A stretch of DNA of 29,559 nucleotides from Nitrospirota bacterium (GCA_035873255.1 JAYWMP010000141.1:1-29559); one strand, 5' to 3'. Shown: positions 1,200 to 25,066, counted from the stretch's first letter. Made by a program: numbers and translations. Notes: generated from the letters alone by a model not told the origin.

Positions 1200-1700
1200 A
1201 TGAAATCAGCAGCCAAAAAAGGTGTTTCATACAGCAAAAGCCTTGTCACGGAAACCGGCAGGTATGTCCGGGCGACTGCCGAGTATACAGGTCTCCTCAC
1301 CGCAAGCTACGCAGTAAGGAGCGGCAATCTGTTAACAAGTGCCGTGAGCAGGCTAGCCGAGCCGATAAAAAAGATATCTTTAAACTCACCCCTGAAATAC
1401 TGCAGGGAGACTGTCTCCCTGGTCGCCTCATTAACAAGCGCCGGGGTCAAGGGCCTTGGCAATGTAATCCCCGGATCCGGAGTAAAGCCGCCTGTCCTCG
1501 ACCCTGAAAGGATAGCGAGGATAGAAGAGATGCTTATGCGGATAGACAGGCGTCTTGCGGAAATGGAGAGTGGGGGAAGAGTTCACAGGTCGAAGACTGT
1601 TACTCATGCTGTCACCCAGGAAAAGGCGAAGCTGGGCGGGGCAAGGGACATGCTGTTGCGTCAACTCGTTGAGGCCAACAAGCAATTGAAAGAGGCGTGA
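1200..1700 (+). CDS. Magnetosome-cluster protein of unknown function with C-terminal coiled-coil segments (possibly Man1-like)
   Basis: 166 aa ORF with basic N-terminus, heptad-like ERIARIEEMLMRIDRRLAEME and C-terminal MLLRQLVEANKQLKEA. Lies directly upstream of mamK on the same strand. Confidence 0.65.
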   Translation: MKSAAKKGVSYSKSLVTETGRYVRATAEYTGLLTASYAVRSGNLLTSAVSRLAEPIKKISLNSPLKYCRETVSLVASLTSAGVKGLGNVIPGSGVKPPVLDPERIARIEEMLMRIDRRLAEMESGGRVHRSKTVTHAVTQEKAKLGGARDMLLRQLVEANKQLKEA

Positions 1701-1744
1701 CCAACGCCTGGGCGCGTACGGAAATTAAAGAGAGGAGTTTACAT

Positions 1745-2800
1745 ATGACCAAGCCGAAGCTTTTAAACGTGGGGATTGACCTTGGGACGTCAAGAAGTGT
1801 TATTGCCTGTGATAATGGTATGAGGATGTTTCTTCCGAGTTACGTGGGATTTCCAAAGGACAGTGTGTCGCAAAAGATGCTCGGAAAGAAAGTTGTCTTC
1901 GGGGAAGAGACGCTCAGGCACAGGATGTCCCTCGATTTCTTCAGGCCTATCGAGGCCGGTGTGTTGAAACACTCTGATGACCCTGATAAGGATCCCGGGG
2001 GCTACGGGAAGACCGTGGAAGTAGCAAGGACGCTCCTTGCGCACCTTGTTGAGCAGGTGACTGCTGAGGAGGAAGGGGATGTTGTGCTCCGTGGGGTTAT
2101 CGGGGCGCCTGCCCTGGCCAGCAGAAAGAATAAAAAGGCGCTTCTGGACATATCAAAGGGCATATTCGAGACGGTCATGATAGCCTCCGAACCCTTTTGT
2201 GTTGCTTATGGTCTGGGGCATCTGAGTAACGCTCTTGTCATAGATATAGGCGCTGGAACCGTTGACCTATGCCGGATGCACGGCACAGTGCCTGACGAGG
2301 CGGACCAGATAACCACGTTTAAGGCAGGGGACACGATAGACCAGGTCTTTTACGAACTTATAACCAAAAAGTATCCGGAAGCAGGCCTTACGGTTAATAT
2401 GGTGAAGCGTTTCAAGGAAGAAAACGCCACTGTTTCCGATCATGGAGACGCGATTTTTATTGAACTCCCAGTGAACGGAAAGCCAGAGATGCTTGATGTG
2501 ACAGAGGAACTAAGAGGGGCCTGCAGGGAAATAGTTCCGCACATAGTGGCCGGCATAAAGAAACTCGTTGCAACTTATGACCCCGAGTTTCAGAACGAAC
2601 TGAAAAATAAAGTAATACTGGCCGGGGGCGGGAGCCAGATAATAGGATTGGCGAAGGAGATAGAGGACTTCATGCACACGGCCCTCGGCTCCGGCAGGGT
2701 AACCAGGATCGAAGAGCCCCTTTATGCCGGTGCTAACGGGGCTTTGATGCTTGCTAAAGATATGCCCGACGAGTACTGGTATGAGTTGAGCGAGGCGTAA
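1745..2800 (+). CDS. mamK: Magnetosome actin-like cytoskeletal protein MamK
   Basis: Actin-fold motifs GIDLGTS, SEPF, DIGAGTVD, AGGGSQI and MamK-type C-terminus DMPDEYW. ATG at 1745 (MTKPKLL) follows SD GAGAGGAG; the track's 1697 start is an upstream GTG. Confidence 0.92.
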   Translation: MTKPKLLNVGIDLGTSRSVIACDNGMRMFLPSYVGFPKDSVSQKMLGKKVVFGEETLRHRMSLDFFRPIEAGVLKHSDDPDKDPGGYGKTVEVARTLLAHLVEQVTAEEEGDVVLRGVIGAPALASRKNKKALLDISKGIFETVMIASEPFCVAYGLGHLSNALVIDIGAGTVDLCRMHGTVPDEADQITTFKAGDTIDQVFYELITKKYPEAGLTVNMVKRFKEENATVSDHGDAIFIELPVNGKPEMLDVTEELRGACREIVPHIVAGIKKLVATYDPEFQNELKNKVILAGGGSQIIGLAKEIEDFMHTALGSGRVTRIEEPLYAGANGALMLAKDMPDEYWYELSEA

Positions 2801-2803
2801 AGG

Positions 2804-3016
2804 ATGAAGGTTAAGTGGCTGCTTGCGCTGATTTTCCTTTTTCTCGCTGTTGTATTTCTGGACCAGAACAATGTGCCCGTGCCTGTAAAGGTGATCTTTG
2901 GTAAACCTTTTTATTTCCGCCTGAGTCTTATAATCCTGGTGAGCATCGGTGTCGGCGCATTGCTGACCCTGGCGGGGATCAGGCTGCGGAAGCAGATCAA
3001 CGCTAAAAGACCTTAA
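2804..3016 (+). CDS. Small two-TM LapA-like membrane protein with basic C-tail (MamL/Man2-like)
   Basis: 70 aa, hydrophobic helix - QNNVPVPV - hydrophobic helix - RLRKQINAKRP. This is the architecture of MamL-type proteins, in a cluster with no other mamL candidate. Confidence 0.6.
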   Translation: MKVKWLLALIFLFLAVVFLDQNNVPVPVKVIFGKPFYFRLSLIILVSIGVGALLTLAGIRLRKQINAKRP

Positions 3017-3029
3017 GGAGGTTAGAGAG

Positions 3030-3380
3030 ATGGGGAAGGGACTGCGTTATAATATCGAGCATATTGGAGACACCTTTATTGATGTGATAATCAGGGCGTC
3101 AGACGCTGCAAGGACATCTGCAAAAGGGATTGTTCTGACTTATGATCTGAACGACCTTAAAAGGAAGAGAAGAGAGATTGTTCGCAGCATAGGGGAGAGG
3201 CTTGTACAGTTAAGGAAAGATGAGCCCGGCTTCAACATAGCAGCGGATGAAGAGATGACCCGCCTCCTGTCTGAATTCGACAGGACCGAAAAGGAGATCG
3301 AGGCTGCCGAAACGGAGATTAAAGAGAGGCTCTACCCATGCAAGAGTGAAACGGACCAGATAAAAAATACCGGTTATTGA
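3030..3380 (+). CDS. mad10: Mad10-like coiled-coil magnetosome protein
   Basis: 116 aa, strong SD AAGGAGG, charged helix YDLNDLKRKRREIVRSIGERLVQLRK and ERLYP ending. These resemble Mad10 as I recall it; the symbol is tentative. Confidence 0.55.
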   Translation: MGKGLRYNIEHIGDTFIDVIIRASDAARTSAKGIVLTYDLNDLKRKRREIVRSIGERLVQLRKDEPGFNIAADEEMTRLLSEFDRTEKEIEAAETEIKERLYPCKSETDQIKNTGY

Positions 3381-3397
3381 GAAAGGAGGCAGGCTTT

Positions 3398-3574
3398 ATG
3401 TCAAAGATTTTCGCTGGTGTCTTTTTCGGGGTTTTTATCGGCGCCCTGGCCTACGAGACGCTTAACAGAAGTAATCCCGAGCTGGTTCAAAGAATCAGGA
3501 GTAAAGTATCGAAAAAGCTGGACGACTATCTCGGTCCGATAGAGACCATCGAAGAAGGGGCGCAGCCTGAATGA
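3398..3574 (+). CDS. Small single-TM magnetosome-cluster protein (possibly Man3-like)
   Basis: ATG at 3398 after SD AAGGAGG. 58 aa with Gly-rich TM (FAGVFFGVFIGALAY) and amphipathic tail. Stop overlaps the mamP start (ATGA). Confidence 0.65.
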   Translation: MSKIFAGVFFGVFIGALAYETLNRSNPELVQRIRSKVSKKLDDYLGPIETIEEGAQPE

Positions 3575-4530
3575 GCTTTCCCCGCAAGATTGAAAGTCCT
3601 GTCTTTGTGGTCCTGATCGTATTAATTGGAATATATTTCTATTTCATTTACCCGAGCAGTATCTCCATCCCCATCCCGGATCTGAGTTTCCGGAACTGGG
3701 ATGAGAGGTTTTCTTCTCTCAGAAACGGCGATTTTTACGGCGCCCTTGTTGGTGAGCAGGACCGATCATATCACTATCAGGATGATGACCAGCAGGCCGT
3801 TGTGTTTAATAACAACATAGCAGACCCAGGGGTCTCGCCGGGGGATTTCCTTCAGCAGGGCGGCCAGACCCAGTCAGAGTGGTTTGTCAATCCCCTGAAG
3901 CAATCGCCACAGCTTAATGACCAGGTCAACGGACTGGTTCCTGTCGGGAACGTGCCTCAGCCACCAGTCGTACAGCAAGCGGCGCCGGACAAAGTGCTGC
4001 AGGAGGGACACTGGATCGGCCTTGAAGTGATCGGCCTTTCGTCTGCTATCGCAAGGGCCAACAATATTCCTGATGATGTCAGGGGTGTACTCATAGACGA
4101 GGTGACGCTGCTTGCCGCAGAATCAGGCCTTCTTGCGGGAGACGTGATTACAGGGGTTGCCGGATCCCGGTTGCAGGACCTCCGTTCATTCAAAGATGCG
4201 ACCCGGAAGGTGGCCGGTCTTCGTCAGGCAGTGGTCTCTGTTTTCAGGAAAGACAGGAATTTCGATATAGAGGTTGTCGGAACCGAAGAACTCGGGATCG
4301 CCCAGATGGAGGCCGCACCGATGATAACTGCCGCTGCTACCCGGCCCCACGGCTATTATGGTCCCTGCGACAGGTGCCATACTATATCGAAGACCACATT
4401 CAATCCCGGTCACCTGGCAAAGGACCAGGGAGATGTACTGGCCAGGACCGCACCCCCGATCGGGACAGGCGCAGCGCGACCGCACAGGGAAAGGGGAGAT
4501 TGTACCAGTTGTCACACGATATTGCCCTGA
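3571..4530 (+). CDS. mamP: MamP: TM anchor, PDZ domain and two magnetochrome c-type heme domains
   Basis: N-terminal TM, PDZ (HWIGLEV...GVLIDEV...GLLAGDVI), two PHx5CxxCH motifs (PHGYYGPCDRCH, PHRERGDCTSCH). Confidence 0.92.
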   Translation: MSFPRKIESPVFVVLIVLIGIYFYFIYPSSISIPIPDLSFRNWDERFSSLRNGDFYGALVGEQDRSYHYQDDDQQAVVFNNNIADPGVSPGDFLQQGGQTQSEWFVNPLKQSPQLNDQVNGLVPVGNVPQPPVVQQAAPDKVLQEGHWIGLEVIGLSSAIARANNIPDDVRGVLIDEVTLLAAESGLLAGDVITGVAGSRLQDLRSFKDATRKVAGLRQAVVSVFRKDRNFDIEVVGTEELGIAQMEAAPMITAAATRPHGYYGPCDRCHTISKTTFNPGHLAKDQGDVLARTAPPIGTGAARPHRERGDCTSCHTILP

Positions 4531-5432
4531 CAAACGAGACGTCCGGCGAGTTTTCCGACTGCACCTCGTGTGAAAAGAGGGCCGTCTGGGTTTCTGTTCT
4601 TCTGAACCTGGCCCTCACGATCTTCAAGGCCGTTATAGGTGTCTTCAGCGGAAGTAAGGCAGTGCTCGGTGACGCCCTCTATTCATTAAAAGACTTCGTG
4701 GCCTCCCTTGCGGTGCTCATAGGTGTGAGGGTCTCCAACAAACCGGCCGACAAGAACCATCCTTATGGACACGGCAAGATAGAATACGTAGTGGTTTTTC
4801 TTATCAGCATCCTCATAATCGGGGCGTCAGTATTCCTCTTTGTTCACTCTGTAAAGAATCTCTGGCTTGCCTTTGACGGTCATCACATGTCTCCGCCGAA
4901 GTTCATCGCCTTTTTTGCCGCTATTATATCAGTAATAGCGAATTACAAGCTTTCCGGCTATCTCCGCTGTGTCGGCACGAGGCTCAAGAGCCCTGCTATA
5001 CTGGCCAGCGCTGAACATAACCATTCCGACGCCACGTCCTCTATCCTTGTTGCAGGGGCGATTCTCGGGGCAAGGTTCGGTTTTTATTTCCTTGACCCCC
5101 TGGCCGCCGCCATCGAGACCGTGGACCTGCTGAGGCTGAGTGTCAACATGTTGAACCACTCCCTGACAGGTATGCTCGACTCGAGTGAGAGCGCTGATGT
5201 GAAGGAGGAGATAAGGACGGTCGCCGCCCTTGTCCCGGGTGTCAGGGGGATCCCGATGCTCAAGTCAAGGCGGGTTGGCCAGAATAAGTGGATAGATATC
5301 ATCATCAAAGTTGATCAGGACCGCTCTGTTGAAGAGGGACACAGGATCGGTCTGCATGTTGAGCAGACGCTGAAAAAAGCCATCGGTAATATTGCCGGTA
5401 TAACTTTATCCGTGGAACCGGAGGTCAAGTGA
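4509..5432 (+). CDS. mamM: Magnetosome CDF iron transporter MamM (start codon uncertain, non-ATG)
   Basis: CDF fold with MamM-type sites DALYSLKD (Y-x3-D) and HNHSD, HPYGHGKIEY, and N-terminal CxxC. No in-frame ATG near the expected start; candidates are TTG 4509, TTG 4500 and CTG 4527. Confidence 0.88.
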   Translation: MSHDIALTNETSGEFSDCTSCEKRAVWVSVLLNLALTIFKAVIGVFSGSKAVLGDALYSLKDFVASLAVLIGVRVSNKPADKNHPYGHGKIEYVVVFLISILIIGASVFLFVHSVKNLWLAFDGHHMSPPKFIAFFAAIISVIANYKLSGYLRCVGTRLKSPAILASAEHNHSDATSSILVAGAILGARFGFYFLDPLAAAIETVDLLRLSVNMLNHSLTGMLDSSESADVKEEIRTVAALVPGVRGIPMLKSRRVGQNKWIDIIIKVDQDRSVEEGHRIGLHVEQTLKKAIGNIAGITLSVEPEVK

Positions 5433-5545
5433 CTCTTGCGTATTTTCGGGGTTGTCCACGGAGAGACAGAGAAGATCCGGCCCGGTTGCATGCGCGAGAC
5501 GGGATGCCTGGCGTTGCAGGAATTTGGAATAGTGAAAGAGAATAG

Positions 5546-6202
5546 ATGAAAAGAGACTGGCTCATTAAGGCGCTCGACCTGACGGGAGCTTCCCTGCCAT
5601 CAATACAGAGGAAGGTGGCGGAGCGGAGGCTTGAATTCGAGCTACGACATGAAGGGAGGTCAAAGGAATTTATCTCACATGTCCTCGGCAGCCGCCTTAT
5701 AAAGGAGAAGGCATTGCGGACAGGTGGTATGGGCGGGATTCTTGCCGCGCCTGCAACGCTCCCGGTGATCGGCGCCATAGGAACAATAGCCGTGGGTGTG
5801 ACTGTGGACCTCTTCTATCTCATGCGTGCCCAGGTGGATCTCTGCTATGAGATGTCCGCTACTTACGGGACAGAGTTGGACGAAGAGGAATTAAAGGCTG
5901 TTGTGCTCGCCCTGCTCGGCCTTTCTGGCAGCGCAGGGGCCCTTAAGGGGATAGCCGCAACCACGCTGAAGAATGTGGTTGACCATATGTCTTCGAGCTA
6001 CCTGAGGAAGGGGTTGAGCAAGTCGGCGGCGGAGGTGGCTGAAAAGATGGGCCCCCGGATACTGGGCAAGGCCTACAGGCTGATCCCCCTGCTGGGTATA
6101 CCTCTGAGCGCCTCCATCAACATGGTATCAACCATGATGGTCGGCAACCAGGCGAGAAAGTATTTCAGGACGACGGGAGAGGGCTTGATTAATGAGATAT
6201 AA
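5546..6202 (+). CDS. EcsC-family-like protein (possibly Mad31-like)
   Basis: 218 aa with EcsC-like pattern (TGGMGGILAAP...DLFYLMRAQVDLCYEMSATYG...RLIPLLGIPLSASIN...VGNQARKYF). Overlaps the next gene by 11 nt. Confidence 0.6.
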   Translation: MKRDWLIKALDLTGASLPSIQRKVAERRLEFELRHEGRSKEFISHVLGSRLIKEKALRTGGMGGILAAPATLPVIGAIGTIAVGVTVDLFYLMRAQVDLCYEMSATYGTELDEEELKAVVLALLGLSGSAGALKGIAATTLKNVVDHMSSSYLRKGLSKSAAEVAEKMGPRILGKAYRLIPLLGIPLSASINMVSTMMVGNQARKYFRTTGEGLINEI

Positions 6203-6752
6203 GGCGAAAATCCTGCTGATCACATTGTCGGTATTCCTGGTCTCTTTTGCAGCTTTTGGCTACAACAGGTTTATTGACAAATTGCACCTTCTCCATATAG
6301 CCAATGGCAGGGTTGAGGCCGAGCTGCAGCGCAGGTATATCGTCAACTCCCGGAGCAGGGCGGCGGCTGAGCAGTACCTGGAGACAGAGGGTAAGATACA
6401 GGAGCACCTGATTGAGCTTAATCGGCTCATCAGGTCCGGCGTGCAGGCAGGCAGGCAGGCGGAGACCGAAAAGGAATTGGTCGGACTGGTCGAAAGGCTC
6501 GATGTGTTGAAGGAGGAATATCCAGGGCTCAGAACAAAGGGCCCCTATCTCTTTCTGATGGAGACTATCCAGGATTCGGGCTGGCGGGTGACCATGGAGA
6601 AGTTCCGATACAATGAAGCTGTTTATGATTACAACCTTATAAGGCATATATTCCCCTTTAAAACCCTTGCCTTCCTGTTCGGTTTTCACGAGGAGTCTTT
6701 CATGAAGGCGGAGAAGGGAGCAGAACGGGTTCCCGGCGTCGGTCGGTCTTAA
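6192..6752 (+). CDS. mamQ: Divergent LemA-family protein, second MamQ paralog
   Basis: N-terminal TM, then VEAELQRR...YPGLR...YNEAVYDYNLIRHIFPFKTLAFLFGF, a LemA signature. Confidence 0.75.
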   Translation: MRYKAKILLITLSVFLVSFAAFGYNRFIDKLHLLHIANGRVEAELQRRYIVNSRSRAAAEQYLETEGKIQEHLIELNRLIRSGVQAGRQAETEKELVGLVERLDVLKEEYPGLRTKGPYLFLMETIQDSGWRVTMEKFRYNEAVYDYNLIRHIFPFKTLAFLFGFHEESFMKAEKGAERVPGVGRS

Positions 6753-6761
6753 GCAGAGCGA

Positions 6762-7685
6762 ATGCAATACGAAGAATGTATAAAATGTGCAAAGTGGTCC
6801 CCGCGCCTGAGCGTGTTGGGCAATCTCCTTGCGGCTGTCTTTAAGTTCGTTGTGGGAGTGCTCGCCGGCAGCAAGGGGCTGGTGGCCGACTCTCTCCATT
6901 CAGCGGCTGACGCCATCTCTTCGCTCTTTATACTCATATCCCTGAAGATATCGGGCAAGCCCAGGGACGAGGACCATCCGTACGGTCACGGCAAGGTGGA
7001 GTACATCAGTTCTCTTGTAGCGAGTGTCTTCCTCTTTTTCGGCGCCACGGCAATATTTCTTGATGCCCTGCACACATTCAGCGCCGGCGGAGTGAGGGGT
7101 GTCCCTAAGAATGCCGCGATAGTGGCGACCGTCATCTCTCTCATCTATAGCTACCTGATGTACTCGTCGAACAAGTGTACCGGCACACAGATGGAAAGCC
7201 CCGCCCTTCTGGCTGACGCGGCTGAAAGCAAGGCTGACAGTGCGGCCTCTATTGCGGTGCTGGCCGGGCTTATAGGCACGAAGATTGGGTTTGTTCATGC
7301 CGATACCATCGCCGCCGTGGTGGTATCACTCCTGGTCTTTCACATGAGCGTGGAGATCTTCTTCACCGGCGTGCACGGCCTGGTGGATGTGGCTGTGGAC
7401 AAGGAACTGCTTGATGAAATCCTGGGAGTGAGCCAGGCAGTGGAAGGGGTCAGGGGAGTGAGTGATATAAAGACCCGCCGGATGGGACAGAAAAACGCTG
7501 TCGACATCAGTGTGGAAGTGCCGAGCGAGACCAGCGTCCTTGAGGCACACAGGATAGCCGGGAACGTCAAGGCCGCGATACAGGACCGGATAGGCAGTGT
7601 GGAAGCAATATTTGTGAGGACTGTCCCTGAAGGGACTCCCTGGGCGAGGCGGCTTGTGAGGAATATCCTGGATTTCAGATTGTAG
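6762..7685 (+). CDS. mamB: Magnetosome CDF transporter MamB
   Basis: N-terminal MQYEECIKC, ADSLHSAAD (H-x3-D), HPYGHGKVEY, and C-terminal cytosolic domain (KTRRMGQ...EAHRIA). Confidence 0.9.
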   Translation: MQYEECIKCAKWSPRLSVLGNLLAAVFKFVVGVLAGSKGLVADSLHSAADAISSLFILISLKISGKPRDEDHPYGHGKVEYISSLVASVFLFFGATAIFLDALHTFSAGGVRGVPKNAAIVATVISLIYSYLMYSSNKCTGTQMESPALLADAAESKADSAASIAVLAGLIGTKIGFVHADTIAAVVVSLLVFHMSVEIFFTGVHGLVDVAVDKELLDEILGVSQAVEGVRGVSDIKTRRMGQKNAVDISVEVPSETSVLEAHRIAGNVKAAIQDRIGSVEAIFVRTVPEGTPWARRLVRNILDFRL

Positions 7686-7729
7686 GTTGTTATTTCGGAA
7701 GGTTATAACCTGTAATCTGAAATGCAGGA
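7666..7729 (+). other. Long RNA stem-loop spanning the mamB stop and the mamB-mamA spacer
   Basis: 7672-7690 pairs with 7705-7723 (19 bp, 3 G-U). After one G/G mismatch, 7666-7670 pairs with 7725-7729. 14-nt loop, no U-tract. Confidence 0.6.
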
Positions 7730-7750
7730 CGATAAAAGGAGGTATTATCA

Positions 7751-8404
7751 ATGTCATTAATTGATTTGAGCGAACTCAGGTTTTTTCTCAAGGCGGTTTC
7801 CATTAATGCCGGAAAAGTTGTTGACACACTGGTCGACAGGTATAACCAGTTGCTTCAGCTGAAACCGGAGCAGGCACGGGATGTATATTTCGGGATCGGC
7901 AGGGACCTTGAAAAAAAGGGTGACCGTCCGGGCGCCATAAAGGCCTACAAAAAGGTGCTGGCGGAACTGAAACCCGACGATACGGAGGTCCTCTTCAGGC
8001 TCGGAAGGACTTACCTTGAATCCGGCATGGCCAGGGAGGCCTCGGAGGTGTTCGAGAGGTTCACGGTGATAGAGAGTAGTTCTCCCATCGCTTGGTACCT
8101 GCTCGGGGTGGCCTGCTTTTCGATTGAAGAACCCGCGAAGGCGGAGGGGGCCTTCAAGGAGGCGATAGGCCTTGACAGCGGCTATGCCGAGGCCTATTAC
8201 AAGCTCGGGCTGATATACGACGGTCGGGCTGATTTTGACAAGGCGATCGAGATGTATCAGAAGACAATCGCCCTGAAGCCAGATTTTGTAAAGGCCTACC
8301 AGAGCATAGGTCTGACGTACGAGGGGAAGGGCATGCGTGAAGAAGCGGTGAAATATTTCAAGAAATCGATTGAACTGGACGAGAAGAAACTACAGTACAA
8401 ATAA
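7751..8404 (+). CDS. mamA: TPR scaffold protein MamA
   Basis: Tandem TPR motifs (e.g. AYYKLGLIYDGRADFDKAIEMYQKTIALKP), SD AAGGAGGT, position between mamB and mamI. Confidence 0.88.
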   Translation: MSLIDLSELRFFLKAVSINAGKVVDTLVDRYNQLLQLKPEQARDVYFGIGRDLEKKGDRPGAIKAYKKVLAELKPDDTEVLFRLGRTYLESGMAREASEVFERFTVIESSSPIAWYLLGVACFSIEEPAKAEGAFKEAIGLDSGYAEAYYKLGLIYDGRADFDKAIEMYQKTIALKPDFVKAYQSIGLTYEGKGMREEAVKYFKKSIELDEKKLQYK

Positions 8405-8440
8405 AAAATTAAACTTTGATGGTATGAAAAGGAGGAGATC

Positions 8441-8659
8441 ATGTTAAATATTGTATTCGGCCTTATTGCGATATGCCTTGGGATCTGGGGGTTATTCAAC
8501 TACTGGTGGTATGTGCTTGATGTCTTTATCGCCATACTACCCATCGTGCTTATTACAGGTGGAGTGGTGGCACTTCTCGCGGGCATAAAGAATACAGGGC
8601 TGAGGACCAAGGTCAGGGAAGACAAAGCTCGGAATGCCGAGAGCGTTTCCGACATATAG
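8441..8659 (+). CDS. mamI: Magnetosome membrane protein MamI
   Basis: 72 aa, two TM helices, LGIWGLFNYWW and GGVVALLAGIK motifs typical of MamI. Confidence 0.88.
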   Translation: MLNIVFGLIAICLGIWGLFNYWWYVLDVFIAILPIVLITGGVVALLAGIKNTGLRTKVREDKARNAESVSDI

Positions 8660-8676
8660 AGATAAGGAGACGAGTT

Positions 8677-10428
8677 ATGGAAAGCGGAAAGAATACAAGC
8701 CAGCCAGGCACGGAAGGAAGGGCCCCGGCCGGGACCTGTCCCCGGAACTATAAGCCCTGGGTCTGGACACTCGTTGTTATGGCCATCCTGACGCTCGCCT
8801 GGGCTGTATACGAGAACGTCAGGGAGGACGGCATCGTCGATGCACTGTTAGATGCAGGAGATTTTGCCGCCGCGAAGAACGGGGACCGAGGTCCAGTCAC
8901 GCGGACGGCTGCCGTGAAGGGGACTGTTGGCGGCCTGCAGTTATCCTACCACGACATCATTGAGACGGTGAGACCGGCGGTGATCAGTGTGAACGCAGCT
9001 GTCGCACCGGCACAGATGGGCAGTGCGCCGGCAGGAACAACGCCCAGCCTGGTGGCCGGGCTTCCCGCAGTGAATTATACGAGGGTGGGCTCCGGAGTGA
9101 TAATAGACTCGAATGGTTACGTGCTCAGCAGCCTCCATGTTATAAAGGGGGCCTCTGTACTCAAGGCAACGGTTTACGGCAAGGGTGGCTCCAGGGAATA
9201 TCCGCTGAAGGTGGTGAATGCCGACAACAAGACCGACCTGGTGCTTCTGAGGATCCAGGGCGAAGAACGGTTTCCCTACGCCACACTCGGAGATTCGGAC
9301 ATGATGAGGACCGGCGATGTGGTGCTCGCGATGGGGAGCCCCTTTGGCTTTGACCAGACCATAACCGCCGGCATAATAAGCAGCAGGCACAGGACCCTGC
9401 GCATAGGCAATGAGATCTATGAGGATGTTATCCAGACGGACACCCCAATCAACAAGGGCAACAGCGGAGGCCCACTGGTGAACGTGAGGGGTGAAGTGAT
9501 AGGGCTAAACACTGCAATTTATTCTCCGACAGGCTCTTTCAGCGGGATAGGTTTTTCCATTCCCGTCAACAGCGCCTCCACCCTGGTGTCCGGAGTCGTG
9601 GACTTCAGGGACGCCCCTGTCCAGGTGGCGGGAGGACAGATCGTGGCCTGGACGAGGCAGGGCAGACAGAGGGGTAACTCCTACAAGCTGCCGGGAGGAC
9701 AGATCATCAACCCACCCCACCAATATCGCGGCAAGTGCAGGGACTGCCACCCGCAACTGAAAAAGGGGATTACTGGTTTCAATGTACAACAGGCGGCCCC
9801 AGTCCCCGGCATGCAACAAAACAGCGAGCCCTTTCTCGGAATGAATCTCATAGAGGTGAACGACGTGGTGGCGAGGAGATTCGGTCTCCTTAACCCCCGG
9901 GGCCTTTTAGTTGACAGGGTTTATCCCGGGACTCCGGCTGCCGAAGCAGGGCTGTCAAGGGGGGACATCATTATGAGGGTCGATGGCCGGAAGATAAGGG
10001 GCCTCAAGCTCTTCAAAGAAGTCCTCGCCTCCAAGAGACTGGGGGAGAGTTTTGACCTGGTACTGTGGCAAAACGGCGGCAGGGAGACGGTTACGGTAAG
10101 GAGCATTCCCTACCCGGCCTTTATGCCGGGGCAGCAACCCGGAGGCACTCCGGGGCCTGCGGAGTTTGAGTGGCTCGGCGCTGAATTCATGCCCCTGGAC
10201 GCCGCCCTTTCGGCTTACGTGAAGCATGGCGTCTATGTGGCGGAGGTCGAGGGATTCCTGTCCGGGTCAGGCCTGCAAAAAGGCGACATAATTCAGGCCT
10301 TTGACGGTAAAAATGTGACGGACATGAACGCATTTATCGGTCTTGCGAAGAGGGCCAGGCCCAGGAAAGGCTTCCTGCTCGAAATCCTCCGCTCCGGGAG
10401 TCCCATGTATATATCGGTGAAGGGATGA
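8677..10428 (+). CDS. mamE: MamE: HtrA/DegP serine protease with one magnetochrome and two PDZ domains
   Basis: TM anchor, trypsin domain with triad motifs (GSGVII...SSLHV, DLVLL, GNSGGPL), PHQYRGKCRDCH heme motif, two PDZ domains (FLGM..., WLGA...). Confidence 0.92.
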   Translation: MESGKNTSQPGTEGRAPAGTCPRNYKPWVWTLVVMAILTLAWAVYENVREDGIVDALLDAGDFAAAKNGDRGPVTRTAAVKGTVGGLQLSYHDIIETVRPAVISVNAAVAPAQMGSAPAGTTPSLVAGLPAVNYTRVGSGVIIDSNGYVLSSLHVIKGASVLKATVYGKGGSREYPLKVVNADNKTDLVLLRIQGEERFPYATLGDSDMMRTGDVVLAMGSPFGFDQTITAGIISSRHRTLRIGNEIYEDVIQTDTPINKGNSGGPLVNVRGEVIGLNTAIYSPTGSFSGIGFSIPVNSASTLVSGVVDFRDAPVQVAGGQIVAWTRQGRQRGNSYKLPGGQIINPPHQYRGKCRDCHPQLKKGITGFNVQQAAPVPGMQQNSEPFLGMNLIEVNDVVARRFGLLNPRGLLVDRVYPGTPAAEAGLSRGDIIMRVDGRKIRGLKLFKEVLASKRLGESFDLVLWQNGGRETVTVRSIPYPAFMPGQQPGGTPGPAEFEWLGAEFMPLDAALSAYVKHGVYVAEVEGFLSGSGLQKGDIIQAFDGKNVTDMNAFIGLAKRARPRKGFLLEILRSGSPMYISVKG

Positions 10429-11168
10429 AAGAGATAATAAAGAAACTATATGCCGAGGAGCTGGAACTCATAGCTCCAGCTCCTCCCGCTGTGGACACCA
10501 GGAAGAGAAGCCTCCTGGTTCGCCTGAGGGCCTTCCTGTGGGAACGGCATACGGGTCCGATCAAGGTGGCCCTTGCGGCGTTTGTTCTGGCCGCCATCTC
10601 AGCCACCATCTATTACTATAATATGTTCACGATCAACAACTTCAAGGTGAGGCTTGAGATGGCGCAGATCGAGGCCCACCTCCAGAGACGCAACGATCTT
10701 ATCCCGAACCTGGTGGCTGCTGTAACGGATTACATGGATTATGAAAAGGACATATTCAGGCATGCAGCCGATGTGAGGGCCGCCATCAAGGGGATAGAGA
10801 TTTCCGCCAGGGATGTCTCCAGGCCTGAAGACTTCATGTCGGCGCTCACCAGGTTCCAGGCTGTGGCAGAGAATTATCCCCTGCTTAAGGCCTCTGACGC
10901 GTACCAGACGCTGATGAAGGAGCTTGCCAATACCGAGACGCTTATTGCGGAGGCGAGGATGAATTACAACAGGGCGGCCAATTATTATAACTCCCGGCTC
11001 CGGATGTTTCCTGCTAATCTTTTCAATCTGTTTCTCAGTTTCTATCCCGTGGATACCTTTGAATCCGAGGTGCTGGCAAAGACCGCTCCCGGAATGAGAG
11101 GGGCTGATGAGGTGAAAGGCATGGTCCAGGATCCAGGGACAGAAGGCCCGGTGGAACAGACACCCTGA
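10425..11168 (+). CDS. mamQ: LemA-family magnetosome protein MamQ
   Basis: KKLYAEELEL N-terminus, TM, then IEAHLQRRNDLIPNLV, YPLLKAS and YNSRLRMFPAN LemA motifs. ATGA overlap with mamE. Confidence 0.9.
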   Translation: MKEIIKKLYAEELELIAPAPPAVDTRKRSLLVRLRAFLWERHTGPIKVALAAFVLAAISATIYYYNMFTINNFKVRLEMAQIEAHLQRRNDLIPNLVAAVTDYMDYEKDIFRHAADVRAAIKGIEISARDVSRPEDFMSALTRFQAVAENYPLLKASDAYQTLMKELANTETLIAEARMNYNRAANYYNSRLRMFPANLFNLFLSFYPVDTFESEVLAKTAPGMRGADEVKGMVQDPGTEGPVEQTP

Positions 11169-11244
11169 GTGTCCGGCAGGTATATAGATGTGAGCGAAAA
11201 AACGGACCACGGAATTGCCGCCAGGCCGAATAAAGGGAGTTTTA

Positions 11245-12138
11245 ATGAGAAAAGTCTTTCTGCTTTTGACATTTATAGTAGTAATATTAGCGATCTGTTT
11301 GCCTGCCGGTGTTGCTGAAGCGGCTACGCATACTACAGGGGTGGCGAACACCTTTCTACTTGTTATTATAGGGATTTTTGTCGGGGCCGTGGGAACCCTG
11401 ATAGGCGCCGGCGGCGGATTCCTGGTTGTGCCTGTCCTTATAATCTTCTACGGCTTCTCCCCGCAGTTTGCCGTCGGCACATCCATGGCGGTTGTATTTT
11501 TTAATGCCGTTTCAGGGACCTTTTCATACATGGCCCAGAGCAAGGTGGATTACGAATTGGGTGTCAAGTTTGCCGTGGCGGCAGTGCCGGGTGTATTTAT
11601 CGGGGCCTTCGCCACCCAGGCCGCAAATGTCACCTTTTTTTCAGGCCTCTTCGCCTGCCTGATGCTGACGATGGCCTATCTGCTTATCTTTGTCAGGGAC
11701 CTCCAACTCGTTACATCGGCGGCAGGCAGCTCCAGTGCGAGGATAATCCGGGACTCTTACGGCGCTGAGCACGTTTATACCACGGACCTCTCCATAGGGA
11801 CAGGAGGCAGTTTTCTGGTCGGAATCATATCGGGTCTCTTCGGTATCGGCGGTGGGATAATTCATGTTCCTTTAATGAGTTTTATAGGTATGCCCATGCA
11901 TATCGCCACAGCCACTTCGCATTTTATTATAACCATCACAAGTTTTATCGGCATGCTCATTTTTCTCGGACTGAAGACCGTTGAGATCGATTTCGCCATA
12001 CCCCTCGGGATCGGGGCGATAATAGGCGCTTACGCAGGGGCGAATCTGGCGTTGATTACGGGAGCGGAGGCCATAAAGAAGCTTATCGCGGTTCTGCTTT
12101 TATTGGGCGCGGCCAGATTGCTTGCCGGAGTCTTGTGA
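11245..12138 (+). CDS. mamO: TauE/SafE-family multi-TM protein, MamO C-terminal homolog (MamO-Cter)
   Basis: GTLIGAGGGFLVVP and GLFGIGGGIIHVP TauE repeats, no protease domain. ATG at 11245 follows SD AAGGGAG; position after mamQ. Confidence 0.72.
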   Translation: MRKVFLLLTFIVVILAICLPAGVAEAATHTTGVANTFLLVIIGIFVGAVGTLIGAGGGFLVVPVLIIFYGFSPQFAVGTSMAVVFFNAVSGTFSYMAQSKVDYELGVKFAVAAVPGVFIGAFATQAANVTFFSGLFACLMLTMAYLLIFVRDLQLVTSAAGSSSARIIRDSYGAEHVYTTDLSIGTGGSFLVGIISGLFGIGGGIIHVPLMSFIGMPMHIATATSHFIITITSFIGMLIFLGLKTVEIDFAIPLGIGAIIGAYAGANLALITGAEAIKKLIAVLLLLGAARLLAGVL

Positions 12139-12195
12139 CGCCAGTTCCTGAACAGGGTACAGTCTAAAACAAAATTTATGAGTGAGGAGGTAATA

Positions 12196-13875
12196 ATGAC
12201 TAACAATTCATCAAGCAGGCCGGCCCTGCTGGCCGGTGTGGCCAAGGCCCTGAACGCCGGCGGTAAAGCCGTGGTTTCCGTGTATGACACAGGCTCGGGC
12301 CTGGTGGAGAAGATCTTCTCCACCGTAAGCCAGGTGACTGTCCTGCCCGAGAAGGCGATGGACCTCGCTGAACGACTCGGATCGGTAGAAAAGTGGAAGA
12401 TAGAAAAGGAGATCAAGGCATCCCGGGCCAGGATAAAGGAACTGTATTACGAGATAGGCTGTATGGAGGCCGGGCTTCCTGAATCCGCCGGACCTTCCGA
12501 GAGGGAGCCATTAAAGAGGTTGATTGCGGAAGTCAGGGAATATGAGCAGGAGATTGGGAGGCTGAAGACCAGGCTTGCGGAGATTGGAGCTGCGCAGACC
12601 GGGAGGATGCCGGCTGAAGCCGATGTGGTCAAATCCGTGCAGAGCGCTATTGAAGAAGGGTTGAAGTCCGGGGTCTTTGACAACCCAGGGGAAAAGGCCC
12701 TCTTTGAGCGGGTGGCGAAGGATCTCCTCGACAACAATCTCGGTGTCAGGCTGCTGGCTGTGGCGGAGCTTGGGAAGTTCGGCAACGAGGCCTGTGTCCC
12801 CGTGCTGATCAGTGCCGCAGGGTTCAGGACTCCTGAACTCCTGTCTGAAATAATAAGCATGCTTGTGAGTATAGCTGACAAGCGGGCCGTTCCCTTATTG
12901 AAGGAGCAGTTGTCCTCCCCAGTCTACAGGGTGAGAACGGGTTGCCTGAGGGGGCTTTACAGTCTGGCGGATGAAGAGGAACTACTCCCCCTTCTGACCG
13001 GGGCCCTTGGTGACAGCCATCCGGATGTGAGGGTGACGGCGGCAACCCTGCTTGGATGGAAGGGCAGTCCTGCTGCTGTCGAGGCGCTTTCTCTCTGCCT
13101 GAAGGACAGGGACGAAGCCGTGAGAAGGGCGGCTGTATCCGCCCTTGCCAATATAGGGGACAGTGCTGCCGTGCTTCTCTTGATCAACGTGTTGGGAGAC
13201 AGGAGCTCAGAGATACGCCAGAAGGCGCTTGAGGCCATAACGTCTCTCACTGGCAAGGAGATAGCATTTGATGTCCAGGTGGAAGGAACGGCCCTCTCCG
13301 AGGCTATCGACCGGCTGAAAGAGTGGTGGAAGAGTGAATCAGGGGAGGATCGGTCTGAAGTCGGTATCGAGGTGGAAGCTCAGGCCGGTGTTGCGGATGA
13401 AGTTGAGCCTGTTGCGGATGAAGGGCGTGAGCAGGAGACGGTCCAGGCACGCGAAGAGGAGATGGAGAGGGCAGACGTGGAAGCTCCCGGTGCTGAAAAA
13501 GAACCCGGGATCGATATCCCCGGGGTGGAGGAGGCACTGGCGAGTATTTCATCCGAGGCCCTCGCTGAGATAGAAGAGGCGGAATCTCCGGAAGAAGAGG
13601 AAAGGGTTGTCTCTGAAGGGCGGGATGACATGGATATCGAGGTGACCATCGCCGAGGAGACTGAAGGTGACTCTGAAAAAGAGATGAATCTTGAAGCGGT
13701 AATCGCCGAAGAGGTGAAGGAAGAACCCGGTGGTGAGGTGGAAAGCCCCAGTGAGAGCAAGCTGAAGAAGATGCAGCGGGCCGACCTTGTAACCCTCTGC
13801 AAGGAGTGGGGGATTGAGTGTGATGAGACATTTACAAAGGCGGAGATGATAAAACGTCTGACAGGACGGAAGTGA
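12196..13875 (+). CDS. mad23: Mad23-like HEAT-repeat protein with N-terminal coiled coil, acidic linker and small C-terminal helical domain
   Basis: PBS-lyase/HEAT repeats (LGDSHPDVRVTAATLLG, LKDRDEAVRRAAVSALA, LGDRSSEIRQKALEAI). ATG at 12196 follows SD GAGGAGG; position after mamO-Cter. Confidence 0.75.
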   Translation: MTNNSSSRPALLAGVAKALNAGGKAVVSVYDTGSGLVEKIFSTVSQVTVLPEKAMDLAERLGSVEKWKIEKEIKASRARIKELYYEIGCMEAGLPESAGPSEREPLKRLIAEVREYEQEIGRLKTRLAEIGAAQTGRMPAEADVVKSVQSAIEEGLKSGVFDNPGEKALFERVAKDLLDNNLGVRLLAVAELGKFGNEACVPVLISAAGFRTPELLSEIISMLVSIADKRAVPLLKEQLSSPVYRVRTGCLRGLYSLADEEELLPLLTGALGDSHPDVRVTAATLLGWKGSPAAVEALSLCLKDRDEAVRRAAVSALANIGDSAAVLLLINVLGDRSSEIRQKALEAITSLTGKEIAFDVQVEGTALSEAIDRLKEWWKSESGEDRSEVGIEVEAQAGVADEVEPVADEGREQETVQAREEEMERADVEAPGAEKEPGIDIPGVEEALASISSEALAEIEEAESPEEEERVVSEGRDDMDIEVTIAEETEGDSEKEMNLEAVIAEEVKEEPGGEVESPSESKLKKMQRADLVTLCKEWGIECDETFTKAEMIKRLTGRK

Positions 13876-13923
13876 TATGACACGGATAGTTATATCCCGC
13901 TTATGAACGAGAGGCGTCAGTAA

Positions 13924-15915
13924 ATGAAAACGTGTTCTGAGTGTGACGGGGATGACCCTTTATGGGACCACAAAAGCCGTACTTTGGCTATCGTTGGAAA
14001 TCTTAATGTTGGAAAATCCGTGCTTTTTGAGCGTATGTGTGGGACCAGGGCTGCAAGTTTCAATGTCCCGGGCACAACGGTGTCGGTCAGGAAAGGACAT
14101 ATAAAGGGAACGGACTATGACGTATACGATACACCCGGGGCGTATTCGGTTTTTTCGATGAATGAGGATGAAAGGGCCTCAAGGGATCTCCTCCTGATGG
14201 GAGGGGACTCTATCAGCGGTGTTGATGGGATAATCCTTGTGGCGGATGCAAAAAACCTGAAGCGTTCGATTGCCATTGCACTCCAGTATGCCGGGTACGG
14301 ACTGCCCATGCTCCTGGTTGTTAATATGGTGGATGAGGCTGCCTCCCGGGGTATTGAGGTTGACAGTGATAGTCTCTCGGAAGTTTTCGGAATAGACGTC
14401 TGTACAACGGTCGCCAGCGACGGGATCGGGGTCAGCAGTGTCATATCCCGGCTTAATGATATGCGGGTTCCACGAAGACTGGTCGAATATCCGGCGGTGG
14501 TCAAGGGATTCCTCGAAATCATGGACAAGCTCTTAACGTCGACCGGGGTCTCACCGGAGGCGCTGGGGCTACTCCTGCTTAATGGCGACAGGAGGGCGGA
14601 GGAATATGTGGAGAGAAACTTCGGTCCCGGGATGTTGAAGCAGGTCAAGGACCTTATTGATGAATTCCGGCGGGAGGCCCCGGGGGAGTGCAGGGTCCAG
14701 ATGGGGACACTCTATAACATGAAGGCGGTGCAGATCGCCTCCATGGTCCAGGAAGTTGAGCCCCCATCCAGAAACGAGCACCTTATAACCTTTGGAGACT
14801 GGTGCACGCAGTTGCACACGGGGATCCCGATTGCCTTCGCGGTCCTGGTGCTGATGTATCTGTTTGTGGGTGTCTTCGGGGCCACCTTCCTTGTGGATGC
14901 CATAAACGGTACTGTCTTTGAGGGCTTCCTGATTCCCTGGGTGAACAAGGTTGTTGAGCCCATACCGAGTCCGCTACTGCGTGACATGATAGTCGACCCT
15001 GATTTCGGTGTATTGCCCACTGGTGTCTTCCTTGCCCTCGGGCTTGTATTGCCGGTTATCTTCTGTTTTTATATAGCATTCAGGATACTGGAGGACTCGG
15101 GATATCTTTCGCGGATCTCGATCCTTCTTGACAGGATTTTCAAAAAGATGGGACTCAACGGCAAGGGTGTCATACCTCTTGTGATGGGGTTTTCCTGTGT
15201 AACAATGGCCATTCTGACGACGCGAATGCTCGACACAAAGAAGGAGAGATACATTGCAACCTTCCTCCTTCTCCTCGGCATGCCCTGCGCCCCTTTGCTT
15301 GCGGTCATGCTTGTTATACTGAATAAGTTGCCCATATCGGCAACCGTTACCGTATTCGGGATAATCTTTTCTCAGATGCTCATTGCAGGTCTTCTGGCAA
15401 ACAGGATATTGCCCGGAGAGAGGGCCTCTCTCCTGATGGAGATTCCTCCCATGCGGGTGCCGAACCTCTTCCAGGTGCTGAAGGTATCGGCGTCAAAGAC
15501 CTGTTTTTTCATGAAAGAGGCGGTGCCCATATTTATCATAGCATCCCTTGTTGTGTTTCTTTTTGAAAGGGCGGGGGGATTGGCGGCCCTTGAGAGGTTT
15601 TTCAGGCCTGTGATCAGCGGATTCATGGGACTACCCGAAAAGAGCGTGCAGGTTTTTATCAAGACCGTGATCCGCAGGGAGAGCGGGGCCGTTGAGCTTG
15701 AGCACATCAACGGTATGTATACTAACCTGCAGCTTGTCGTTAACCTGCTGGTGATGACATTTCTGGCGCCGTGTATTAACGCGACCATCGTTCTTTTCAA
15801 GGAACGTGGTGGAATGGCGGCCTCCGCAATCATCGGGGCCGTGACCGTATATGCCGTTGTAATAGGGAGCATAGTAAGCCAGACCTGCCGTTTTTTCGGA
15901 ATTACATTCACATAA
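13924..15915 (+). CDS. feoB: Ferrous iron transporter FeoB
   Basis: G motifs GNLNVGKS, PGTTV, DTPG, NMVD. Membrane domain with LEDSGYLSRI, GFSCVTMA and MEIPPMRVP gate motifs. Confidence 0.93.
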   Translation: MKTCSECDGDDPLWDHKSRTLAIVGNLNVGKSVLFERMCGTRAASFNVPGTTVSVRKGHIKGTDYDVYDTPGAYSVFSMNEDERASRDLLLMGGDSISGVDGIILVADAKNLKRSIAIALQYAGYGLPMLLVVNMVDEAASRGIEVDSDSLSEVFGIDVCTTVASDGIGVSSVISRLNDMRVPRRLVEYPAVVKGFLEIMDKLLTSTGVSPEALGLLLLNGDRRAEEYVERNFGPGMLKQVKDLIDEFRREAPGECRVQMGTLYNMKAVQIASMVQEVEPPSRNEHLITFGDWCTQLHTGIPIAFAVLVLMYLFVGVFGATFLVDAINGTVFEGFLIPWVNKVVEPIPSPLLRDMIVDPDFGVLPTGVFLALGLVLPVIFCFYIAFRILEDSGYLSRISILLDRIFKKMGLNGKGVIPLVMGFSCVTMAILTTRMLDTKKERYIATFLLLLGMPCAPLLAVMLVILNKLPISATVTVFGIIFSQMLIAGLLANRILPGERASLLMEIPPMRVPNLFQVLKVSASKTCFFMKEAVPIFIIASLVVFLFERAGGLAALERFFRPVISGFMGLPEKSVQVFIKTVIRRESGAVELEHINGMYTNLQLVVNLLVMTFLAPCINATIVLFKERGGMAASAIIGAVTVYAVVIGSIVSQTCRFFGITFT

Positions 15916-15931
15916 TAAAGGAGGCCAGCCT

Positions 15932-16594
15932 GTGCTGAACGAAGAACAGGAAGAGATACTGGAGGCGATCTGGATTGCAGGGGAGTACAAAAATTGTTCG
16001 ATGGATTCCGTCAGGAATCTCTGCGTCATAGACTTCTCTGATGCTGACGTTGCGGAGCTTGAGCGGAAGGGTCTTGTCGTAAGGAATACCGATAAAGTGC
16101 TTTTTTCGGGCGAGGGAAAGAAGATATCCGAGGGCATCATAAGGAGACACCGTCTGGCCGAAGTGCTGGTGACGAGTATCCTGAAACTGAAGGAGTCCGA
16201 CATGGAAAAGGTGGCCTGCAAGGTCGAACACGCCCTGCTGCCGGAGGTGGAGGAATCGATCTGCACGCTCCTTGGACATCCGGAACTATGCCCCGACGGA
16301 AAGCCGATTCCAAAGGGCAGATGTTGCGAAGACAGGCGCAGGGAGGTGAATAATACCGTGGTCAGCCTGGTTGAACTCAATCCCGGGGAGAGTGGCAAGA
16401 TTACTTATATCAAGCCGGGGAGTCATTCGAACCTGCATCAGCTGATATCCCTTGGCCTGCACCCGGGGATTATAGTTACACTGCACCGGTCAAACCCGGT
16501 CTTCTGTGTGAAGTTTGAAAATACCGAGGTTGCACTGGACAGGGACATAGCCGCCAATATATTTGTGTGGAGGGTTAATCCTGACGGATGTTAG
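15932..16594 (+). CDS. DtxR/MntR-family metal-dependent regulator with C-terminal FeoA (SH3-like) domain
   Basis: RRHRLAE, ACKVEH, LGHPELCPDGKPIP motifs and FeoA-like tail (LISLGLHPG...EVALDRDIAANIFV). GTG start after SD GGAGG. Confidence 0.85.
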   Translation: MLNEEQEEILEAIWIAGEYKNCSMDSVRNLCVIDFSDADVAELERKGLVVRNTDKVLFSGEGKKISEGIIRRHRLAEVLVTSILKLKESDMEKVACKVEHALLPEVEESICTLLGHPELCPDGKPIPKGRCCEDRRREVNNTVVSLVELNPGESGKITYIKPGSHSNLHQLISLGLHPGIIVTLHRSNPVFCVKFENTEVALDRDIAANIFVWRVNPDGC

Positions 16595-22980: not shown

Positions 22981-23667
22981 TCAGCCTCTGGAGTCACCGG
23001 AAAATTTTATATAATTTTCCCAGACTGACAATAATCCGGCGGTTGCACGGAGATCACCCGCGCAATATCTGGCTATATCAATATGCCGTCCGGATTTAAA
23101 GAGGTCTTTCACTTCATATCCCGTAATGCCGTCTTCCTTGGGGCTTTTAATACCGAATGTGCGGCACCACATATCGAGGCTGAATTTCCTGCGTGAAGCT
23201 CCGTGGAATGTGAGTTGTTCCAGCAGGTCGATATGAATGTCTCCATATCTGTAAGGCATAAGTTCCTTCAGTGGCTTTATTTTATGCACGGCTGAACGCA
23301 CCAGTATGAACGGGCAGTCAAAGCCCCTGCCGTTAAATGTGATGAACTGATGGTAGCTTTTTATCACATTCCAGAATTTCCGGATTATCTCCTCTTCCGT
23401 TCCGGATTCGTATTTAATCCCTTCTTCTTCAAAAGGCGGAACCGGATCGCTGTTGTTCTGAAAGAAGACCACACCTTTGGCTGTATCAGGATTGAGCATT
23501 CCTATCGTAATGATTTCACCCGTCAAGGGGTAGAAGGAAAGACTTTCTTTCACTTCCGCCCTCTCATCTTCGGATTCGGCCCACCTGAGCAGATATTCCC
23601 GTACCGGTTCCTCCAGAGTCTCAAAGTCTCGGCCGGTGGTTTCTATATCGAATACTATTCGCGCCAT
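22981..23667 (-). CDS. Predicted 3'-5' exonuclease (PolB exonuclease / RNase H-like fold)
   Basis: ExoI FDIET, ExoII FNGRGFD, ExoIII YCAGD. Confidence 0.85.
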   Translation of the reverse strand: MARIVFDIETTGRDFETLEEPVREYLLRWAESEDERAEVKESLSFYPLTGEIITIGMLNPDTAKGVVFFQNNSDPVPPFEEEGIKYESGTEEEIIRKFWNVIKSYHQFITFNGRGFDCPFILVRSAVHKIKPLKELMPYRYGDIHIDLLEQLTFHGASRRKFSLDMWCRTFGIKSPKEDGITGYEVKDLFKSGRHIDIARYCAGDLRATAGLLSVWENYIKFSGDSRG

Positions 23668-23716
23668 TTTCTGACTGTAGTGGGAATCGGCAATAAAGCG
23701 TCAGCCCTTTTACCCG

Positions 23717-25045: not shown

Positions 25046-25066
25046 AGTTTTATCTGACCTCCTGCA

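Follow-up and report, generated by a model that had tools for sequence, protein, structure and literature searches.

A reduced man-type magnetosome gene cluster in a third MamK-bearing family of the Thermodesulfovibrionales

Both the gene content and the gene order of Nitrospirota magnetosome clusters have been described as extraordinarily conserved, and to our knowledge the functions of their man and mad genes have gone untested for want of a cultured member. The published order runs man1-mamK-man2-mad10-man3-mamP-mamM-mad31-mamQII-mamB-mad2-mamA-mamI-mamE-mamQI-man4-6-mamO-mad23-26 (PMC8353452, PMC9376291). The clusters of the Dissulfurispiraceae have been called 'highly compact', and Ca. 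Belliniella magnetica LBB04 (Syntrophales), with a man-type cluster lacking most mad genes, forms bullet-shaped magnetite crystals (both PMC9376291). The Elusimicrobiota DUR002 and DUR003 combine a magnetosome cluster with an absence of flagellar genes and the presence of type IV pilus and Che genes (bioRxiv 10.1101/2022.07.08.499144). Here we describe a magnetosome gene cluster at positions 1200-16594 of a 29,559-bp stretch of Nitrospirota DNA (the window), which is the whole of one contig of a 1.93-Mb metagenome-assembled genome (G000; 308 contigs, N50 8 kb, 95% complete) with a guanine plus cytosine (GC) content of 48.0%. From sequence comparison, we regard it as an intact, selectively maintained and reduced cluster of the man type that probably directs the formation of membrane-enclosed magnetite crystals.

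The cluster consists of 18 genes in 15.4 kb, all on the + strand and spaced by -11 to +113 bp, and the sequence-only reading of co-oriented, tightly packed genes is borne out. It is bounded by the housekeeping genes htpX (1-834) on the left and uvrC (16905-18686) on the right. Proteins were identified with Pfam and NCBIfam models (NCBIfam cut-offs of 400 bits for MamK and 350 bits for MamM), and the small open reading frames (ORFs) were named by transitive BLASTP and profile hidden Markov models (HMMs) against the published Nitrospirota clusters. For these models the ORFs of 23 cluster loci were grouped by BLASTP, HMMs were made from the groups, and the genes of Ca. Magnetomonas plexicatena LBB01 were labelled via the published order. 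The features are as follows.

1200..1700, + strand: Man1-like protein of 166 amino acids, soluble and coiled-coil-like (Man1 HMM from 12 Nitrospirota clusters, E 4.9e-19).
1745..2800, + strand: MamK, actin-like filament protein of 351 amino acids (NCBIfam MamK, NF040964, 460 bits, cut-off 400); the ORF has a further possible opening at GTG 1697.
2804..3016, + strand: Man2-like small protein of 70 amino acids with two membrane segments (hydrophobic residues 1-26 and 30-48); weak LapA_dom match, and the BLASTP family is that of the gene after mamK in 18 clusters.
3030..3380, + strand: Mad10-like protein of 116 amino acids (Mad10 HMM E 1.6e-41), between man2 and man3 as published.
3377..3574, + strand: Man3-like single-pass membrane protein of 65 amino acids with one hydrophobic segment, sharing 42-59% identity with the gene that precedes mamP in 18 clusters.
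3571..4530, + strand: MamP, with a PDZ domain and two magnetochrome (CXXCH) haem domains (Pfam MCR 8e-14, PDZ_2; NCBIfam MamP 220 bits).
4500..5432, + strand: MamM, cation-diffusion-facilitator (CDF) transporter (NCBIfam CDF_MamM, NF033615, 370 bits, cut-off 350); start codon TTG, preceded by a GGGGAG ribosome-binding site.
5546..6202, + strand: Mad31-like membrane protein of the EcsC family (Pfam EcsC 33 bits; Mad31 HMM E 1.4e-83).
6192..6752, + strand: MamQ-II, LemA family (Pfam LemA 2e-18; NCBIfam MamQ the sole match), 30-46% identical to the MamQ-II of relatives at the equivalent position.
6762..7685, + strand: MamB, CDF transporter (NCBIfam CDF_MamB best, 250 bits), sharing 55-63% identity with its counterparts in named magnetotactic genomes.
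7751..8404, + strand: MamA, tetratricopeptide-repeat scaffold (NCBIfam MamA best, 2.4e-40), directly after mamB without mad2.
8441..8659, + strand: MamI, 72 amino acids with two membrane segments (NCBIfam MamI 1.2e-20; Pfam MamI on orthologues).
8677..10428, + strand: MamE, HtrA-type serine protease with one magnetochrome and two PDZ domains (Trypsin_2, PDZ; NCBIfam MamE 248 bits).
10425..11168, + strand: MamQ-I, LemA family (Pfam LemA 2e-35; NCBIfam MamQ best).
11245..12138, + strand: MamO-Cter, TauE-type transporter only (Pfam TauE 2e-46; fits the C-terminal part of NCBIfam MamO), directly after mamQ-I without man4-6 and 51-61% identical to the MamO-Cter of relatives.
12178..13875, + strand: Mad23, HEAT-repeat protein with a long acidic C-terminal tail (HEAT_2 3e-28; Mad23 HMM E 9.5e-125).
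13924..15915, + strand: cluster-specific FeoB, a Mad17-like ferrous iron transporter (FeoB_N, Gate and FeoB_C domains).
15932..16594, + strand: DtxR-type iron-responsive regulator fused to FeoA, Mad30-like (Fe_dep_repr_C and FeoA domains).

All nine core genes (mamA, B, E, I, K, M, O, P and Q) sit in this one co-oriented block. MamK, which is 60-69% identical to the named MamK of Nitrospirota and Desulfobacterota, and MamM exceed the curated NCBIfam cut-offs, and for MamB, MamA, MamI, MamP, MamE and both MamQ the magnetosome model is the top or near-top match. For MamE, the generic DegP/HtrA model outscores the magnetosome model. In this protein the GNSGG serine motif at residue 261 is intact and a CXXCH lies at residue 354, as in every Nitrospirota orthologue, and the CXXCH motifs of MamP at residues 266 and 311 are shared by all orthologues, so that the magnetochrome counts of two in MamP and one in MamE are identical in every Nitrospirota orthologue compared. 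MamO is present solely as its TauE-type C-terminal half, as in all Nitrospirota. The HMM matches to Man1, Mad10, Mad31 and Mad23 (E 5e-19 to 1e-124) and the BLASTP families place man1, man2, man3, mad10, mad31 and mad23 at their canonical positions, with the Man1-like gene directly upstream of mamK as published. The window thus holds 16 of the 23 canonical man1-mad26 genes, arranged in the canonical order, and after them come feoB and dtxR-feoA. The sequence-only reading had named mamK, P, M, B, A, I and E, two mamQ, mamO-Cter, mad10- and mad23-like genes and feoB, all upheld by the Pfam, NCBIfam and HMM matches, and had claimed an order of Nitrospirota type, which agrees with that published (PMC8353452, PMC9376291); its 'L-like gene' is Man2 or Man3 and not MamL. 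Elsewhere in the genome there is no second magnetosome locus, just ordinary paralogues of the CDF, LemA, HtrA, TauE, FeoB (34%) and DtxR (37%) proteins. The second, housekeeping FeoB, 34% identical to that of the cluster, lies on contig C110.

The identical 18-gene order recurs in three more assemblies, namely the sister species (GCA_024275975.1; G001, 96% complete), an ENA scaffold and GCA_054014435.1. In the sister species, the cluster shows about 95% amino-acid identity and the same htpX and uvrC flanks, and in GCA_054014435.1 (61% GC; hereafter the 61%-GC relative) it shows 64-91% identity and both flanks are different. The unit ends with dtxR-feoA, the final gene common to the window and the 61%-GC relative, beyond which the right flanks of the two diverge. 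When MamE was searched against 5.8 billion proteins, the relatives recovered were 100%, 86% and 81% identical, and none of the next matches exceeded 56%. The ratio of non-synonymous to synonymous substitution rates (dN/dS) against the sister species is 0.03-0.49 across all 18 genes, which indicates purifying selection, and against the 61%-GC relative it is 0.03-0.18 at a dS of about 1, small accessory genes included; for the Man1-like gene we obtained 0.16-0.32. Because the same 18-gene order is found in other assemblies and dN/dS is low for every gene, the cluster is not a decaying remnant. Public runs with cluster sequence are hydrothermal-vent, marine-sediment and marine metagenomes.

Seven canonical genes, mad2, man4, man5, man6, mad24, mad25 and mad26, are absent from the cluster, as is mad28, and these are exactly the genes that the sequence-only reading had listed as missing. 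The direct neighbours at the usual sites are confirmed as mamB-mamA, mamQ-I-mamO-Cter and mad23-feoB, and the gaps between them, of 65, 76 and 48 bp respectively, leave no room for mad2, man4-6 and mad24-26. A search of the remaining genome, proposed in the sequence-only reading, was made with HMMs for the missing genes, built from 4-11 orthologues each and run against the six-frame translation of G000. The Mad2, Man4, Man5, Man6, Mad24, Mad25, Mad26 and Mad28 HMMs found nothing there at E<0.09 (for Man4-6, no match better than E 0.12), and tblastn with the LBB01 proteins recovered none of the missing genes from the whole assembly. Run as controls, the Man1, Mad10, Mad31 and Mad23 HMMs picked up the corresponding genes of the window at 5e-19 to 1e-124. 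The Mad2 and Mad25 profiles matched nothing in G000 or G001, and the Man6 profile gave a 14-bit chance match only; as positive controls, these three profiles scored 8e-48 to 5e-148 in two control genomes, with Mad2 at 8e-48 and 5e-60.

Set beside the canonical Nitrospirota clusters (Ca. Magnetobacterium, Magnetominusculus and LBB01), the window has all shared genes in the same order and the same architecture of MamP, MamE and the TauE-only MamO, with the proteins of LBB01 being 26-63% identical to its own. The canonical clusters measure 19-22 kb against 15.4 kb and belong to a different host family; the cluster in the window has feoB and dtxR-feoA added at its end and branches outside the Magnetobacteriaceae clade. 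The Dissulfurispiraceae clusters (MYbin3, nDJH13bin21, G122) resemble the window in the adjacency of mamB and mamA, in nearby iron-uptake genes and in a host outside the Magnetobacteriaceae; unlike the window, they retain man4-6 and mad24-26, have mad2 relocated behind mad26, are nested in the Magnetobacteriaceae clade and come from hosts with FlhA. FK1.bin72, a Nitrospirae metagenome-assembled genome of the same family as MYbin3, shares with the window a mamO-Cter, mad23, feoB, dtxR ending without mad24-26, but it keeps mad2, separates mamQ-I from mamO by about 2 kb, lacks mad31 and has a FeoB only 36% identical. The clusters of LBB04 and of the Pelobacteraceae (PMC9376291, PMC7449369) are likewise reduced, man-type and outside the Magnetobacteriaceae, in another phylum; the Desulfuromonadales locus ELA679 is 57-62% identical to the window, and LBB04 is set beside it by description only. 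The Elusimicrobiota clusters are without magnetochrome proteins and MamK and have mae genes of their own, whereas the window has the full MamK/MamP/MamE core. A FeoB-DtxR pair also lies beside the magnetosome clusters of several other lineages. None of the clusters compared has an arrangement identical to that of the window, which is a reduced variant of the known man1-mad26 type, compact man-type clusters having already been published. Loss of these accessory genes is compatible with function, as LBB04 still makes bullet-shaped magnetite with most mad genes gone.

Two details of these clusters were noted in passing. In FK1.bin72 (L049, L142), mamM is followed directly by mamQ-II, a second and different reduced arrangement within its family, and in G122 two Mad2 copies flank the cluster (C16:23576-23962 and 44364-44756).

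To place the host, MamK was surveyed in 317 species genomes of the order Thermodesulfovibrionales, true MamK being taken as at least 59% identity with E<1e-120. It was found in 18 of 22 genomes of family f3, in 7 of 68 of family f6 and in 2 of 54 of family f1, to which the window belongs, both in the host genus only. Since LBB01, Magnetominusculus dajiuhuensis and Magnetoovum belong to f3, this family is the Magnetobacteriaceae, and since MYbin3, nDJH13bin21 and FK1.bin72 belong to f6, the latter is the Dissulfurispiraceae in the sense of PMC9376291. The host genome lies outside both of these known magnetotactic Nitrospirota families, and its genus represents a third MamK-bearing family of the order. 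Of the earlier suggestion of a minimal cluster from an undescribed lineage, the reduced cluster and the host outside the Magnetobacteriaceae and Dissulfurispiraceae stand; 'undescribed' may not hold, as SG8_35_4 had by 2017-2018 been named as a third group of Nitrospirae carrying a putative magnetosome cluster (PMC5955933). SG8_35_4 could equal the host genus, and the lineage may already count as a putative magnetotactic genome; the sister species, being GCA_024275975.1, is not SG8_35_4. The literature examined on hydrothermal, cold-seep and Thermodesulfovibrionia magnetosomes, which did not extend to Zhu et al. 2025 and the GdbMTB tables, held nothing on the host lineage, and the host family has not previously been discussed there for magnetotaxis.

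Of the 53 non-magnetotactic f1 genomes, 40 have a solitary actin-like gene with 43-47% identity to MamK (loci L017-L040, for example L019:9488-10495 and L020:5977-6981), and both magnetosome-bearing f1 genomes are without it. It scores 413-419 bits against the NCBIfam MamK cut-off of 400 and, because such genes pass it, a MamK annotation alone is no marker of a magnetosome cluster in this order. The idea that this lone 45%-identical gene is an ancestral remnant of the locus was dropped, as it adjoins htpX in just 2 of 24 loci.

The cluster is compositionally foreign to the genome that carries it. Its GC content is 53.4% against a mean of 49.2% for other 15.4-kb segments of G000 (standard deviation (sd) 1.1, maximum 52.3), its tetranucleotide distance is 0.232 against 0.100 elsewhere (sd 0.018), about 7 sd out, and the third-position GC of most of its genes falls in the 97th-99.9th percentile of the genome. 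An offset of +6 to +7 points is seen in the sister species and the ENA scaffold too, whereas in the 61%-GC relative the GC of the cluster equals that of its flanks. Between the two lineages, mean identity is about 79% for the cluster proteins, against 46-71% for nine housekeeping orthologues. Since the GC offset is absent there and cluster identity exceeds housekeeping identity, we infer that the cluster entered the 48%-GC host genus from a GC-rich relative. In a maximum-likelihood tree of ten proteins, the window clade forms a long branch outside the clade of f3 and MYbin3-type f6 clusters (support 100/99), on the side of FK1.bin72 and the Desulfuromonadales man-type cluster; the tree is in effect unrooted, and the claim is therefore restricted to the window clade not being nested in the Magnetobacteriaceae. 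The cluster borders show no tRNA gene, flanking direct repeats, integrase or transposase. As htpX and uvrC are never adjacent in 52 non-magnetotactic f1 genomes, no insertion scar is definable and a clean 'empty site' was dropped. A promoter search upstream of man1 gave a best site at 1050-1078 that is overall no better than chance.

Four flagellar markers, FlhA (FHIPEP), FliP, Flagellin_N and Flg_bb_rod/hook, are absent from the host genome, its sister species and a single-contig f1 genome, and all are present in LBB01. Across the order, FlhA is found in all 22 f3 genomes, in 62 of 68 f6 genomes including all seven with MamK, and in 12 of 53 f1 genomes, none of them in the host genus; all 25 other MamK-bearing genomes carry it. 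The host genome does encode the type IV pilus genes pilB-pilT-pilC-pilS-pilR and a single chemosensory cluster (contig C98:548-13009, locus L153) with CheA, CheY, three CheW domains, two methyl-accepting chemotaxis proteins, one of them fused to a phosphonate-binding domain, a DUF4388/PATAN protein, a HEAT protein and an AAA_22 ATPase. The flagella-less magnetotactic Elusimicrobiota are the only published parallel that we found for these hosts.

By analogy with work on Magnetospirillum and Desulfovibrio magneticus RS-1, a division of labour among the 18 genes can be proposed. MamI, both MamQ, MamB and MamA would build and coat the vesicle, which iron may enter via MamB/MamM, the TauE-type MamO-Cter and the dedicated FeoB. 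The magnetochrome haems of MamP and MamE would set the Fe(II)/Fe(III) balance, with MamE predicted also to process partner proteins, and the chain would be organised by MamK, the small Man and Mad proteins and the HEAT protein Mad23. The DtxR-FeoA fusion probably couples expression to iron supply. Taken together, the 18 genes may be enough for magnetosome formation, and the magnets may assist surface movement by type IV pili or serve some end other than navigation while swimming. The bolder proposal, that the unit is a naturally minimal, self-contained and horizontally mobile module, able to yield magnetite magnetosomes in the absence of mad2, man4-6, mad24-26 and mad28 and kept by non-flagellated sediment bacteria for magnetically oriented type IV pilus motility or an iron/redox function, is one we put forward only tentatively and hold to be doubtful as a whole.

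Several points count against a functional cluster of this history. Its transcripts, proteins and magnetosomes are predicted from the genes, and no RNA run is among the listed public runs that hold its sequence. The absence of flagellar genes removes the usual reason for keeping a magnetic compass, and the cluster is without mad2, which, as cited in PMC8353452, is required for normal crystals in D. magneticus RS-1. The direction of transfer depends on composition and just nine flanking orthologues. In addition, an ftsE-ftsX-peptidase M23-ctpB(S41)-RNase H-like block (22981-27776 in the window, - strand; L156:5920-10687 in the 61%-GC relative) lies 6-9 kb from the cluster in both lineages, on opposite sides and in opposite orientations, which also fits vertical descent with local inversion or rearrangement. 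Acquired but silent clusters do exist, for example in Rhodovastum (bioRxiv 10.1101/2022.04.19.488322), and these precedents, together with the foreign composition, the absence of mad2 and other accessory genes and two host genomes devoid of flagellar genes, would suit a horizontally acquired passenger that is silent or no longer makes magnetosomes. We consider this unlikely, given that at least four independent assemblies preserve all 18 reading frames intact, that dN/dS stays at 0.03-0.18 over a dS of about 1 even in the small accessory genes, and that the gene order is frozen in two lineages with reshuffled flanks; in a genome of about 2 Mb, a 15-kb cluster without use should have been lost over such a time.

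The assemblies themselves allow two further explanations. Both host assemblies are unclosed, at 95-96% complete, G000 is fragmented and the Magnetobacteriaceae hold mad28/29 and feoAB at separate loci (PMC9376291), so that the missing mad, man and flagellar genes might reside in the unassembled 4-5% or in unbinned contigs, and the cluster would then not be truly minimal. This is very improbable: the usual positions of mad2, man4-6 and mad24-26 are closed by direct adjacency in four assemblies, two independently assembled genomes gave no profile match, and neither these two nor the single-contig f1 genome has any of the four flagellar markers, which come from different operons. That the contig is chimeric or misbinned, with the cluster from another organism, is harder still to credit. 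The GC of the cluster, 5-6 points above the remaining bin, would agree with it; however, the 14 kb of non-cluster sequence on the contig has the composition of the bin (47.6% GC) and bears its only uvrC and a family-type htpX, the same junctions are present in G001 and the ENA scaffold, and the upstream genes of that scaffold match G000 contig C9 at 94-99%.

An intact, maintained and reduced man-type cluster would be informative in several respects. Seven accessory genes have been shed and the remainder is under purifying selection in two diverged lineages, which shows which of them are dispensable, and the unit is a small candidate for moving deep-branching, probably bullet-shaped, magnetite synthesis to a tractable host. 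The third MamK-bearing family, with a foreign-composition cluster in 2 of 54 species, adds a new case to the debate between vertical descent with loss and horizontal spread. With its full set of MamK, MamP and MamE and its absent flagellar genes, the host lineage would be only the second without flagella to carry a magnetosome cluster, and the first of these to have the classical core; such hosts make the purpose of magnetosomes in non-swimming cells a directly testable question.

Some smaller observations concern the accessory proteins and their relatives in the host. Outside the cluster, a 138-residue coiled-coil protein (G000 contig C145:2347-2760) gives a weak match to the Mad10 HMM (E 1e-5). 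The HEAT-repeat protein of the chemosensory cluster, 664 residues in length, is the second-best match of the Mad23 HMM in G000 (E 6e-34). In Mad23 itself, residues ~390-565 form a Glu/Asp-rich extension without a Pfam match that ends in a short basic helix-like segment, and the Mad23 of LBB01 is about 130 residues shorter than that of the window.

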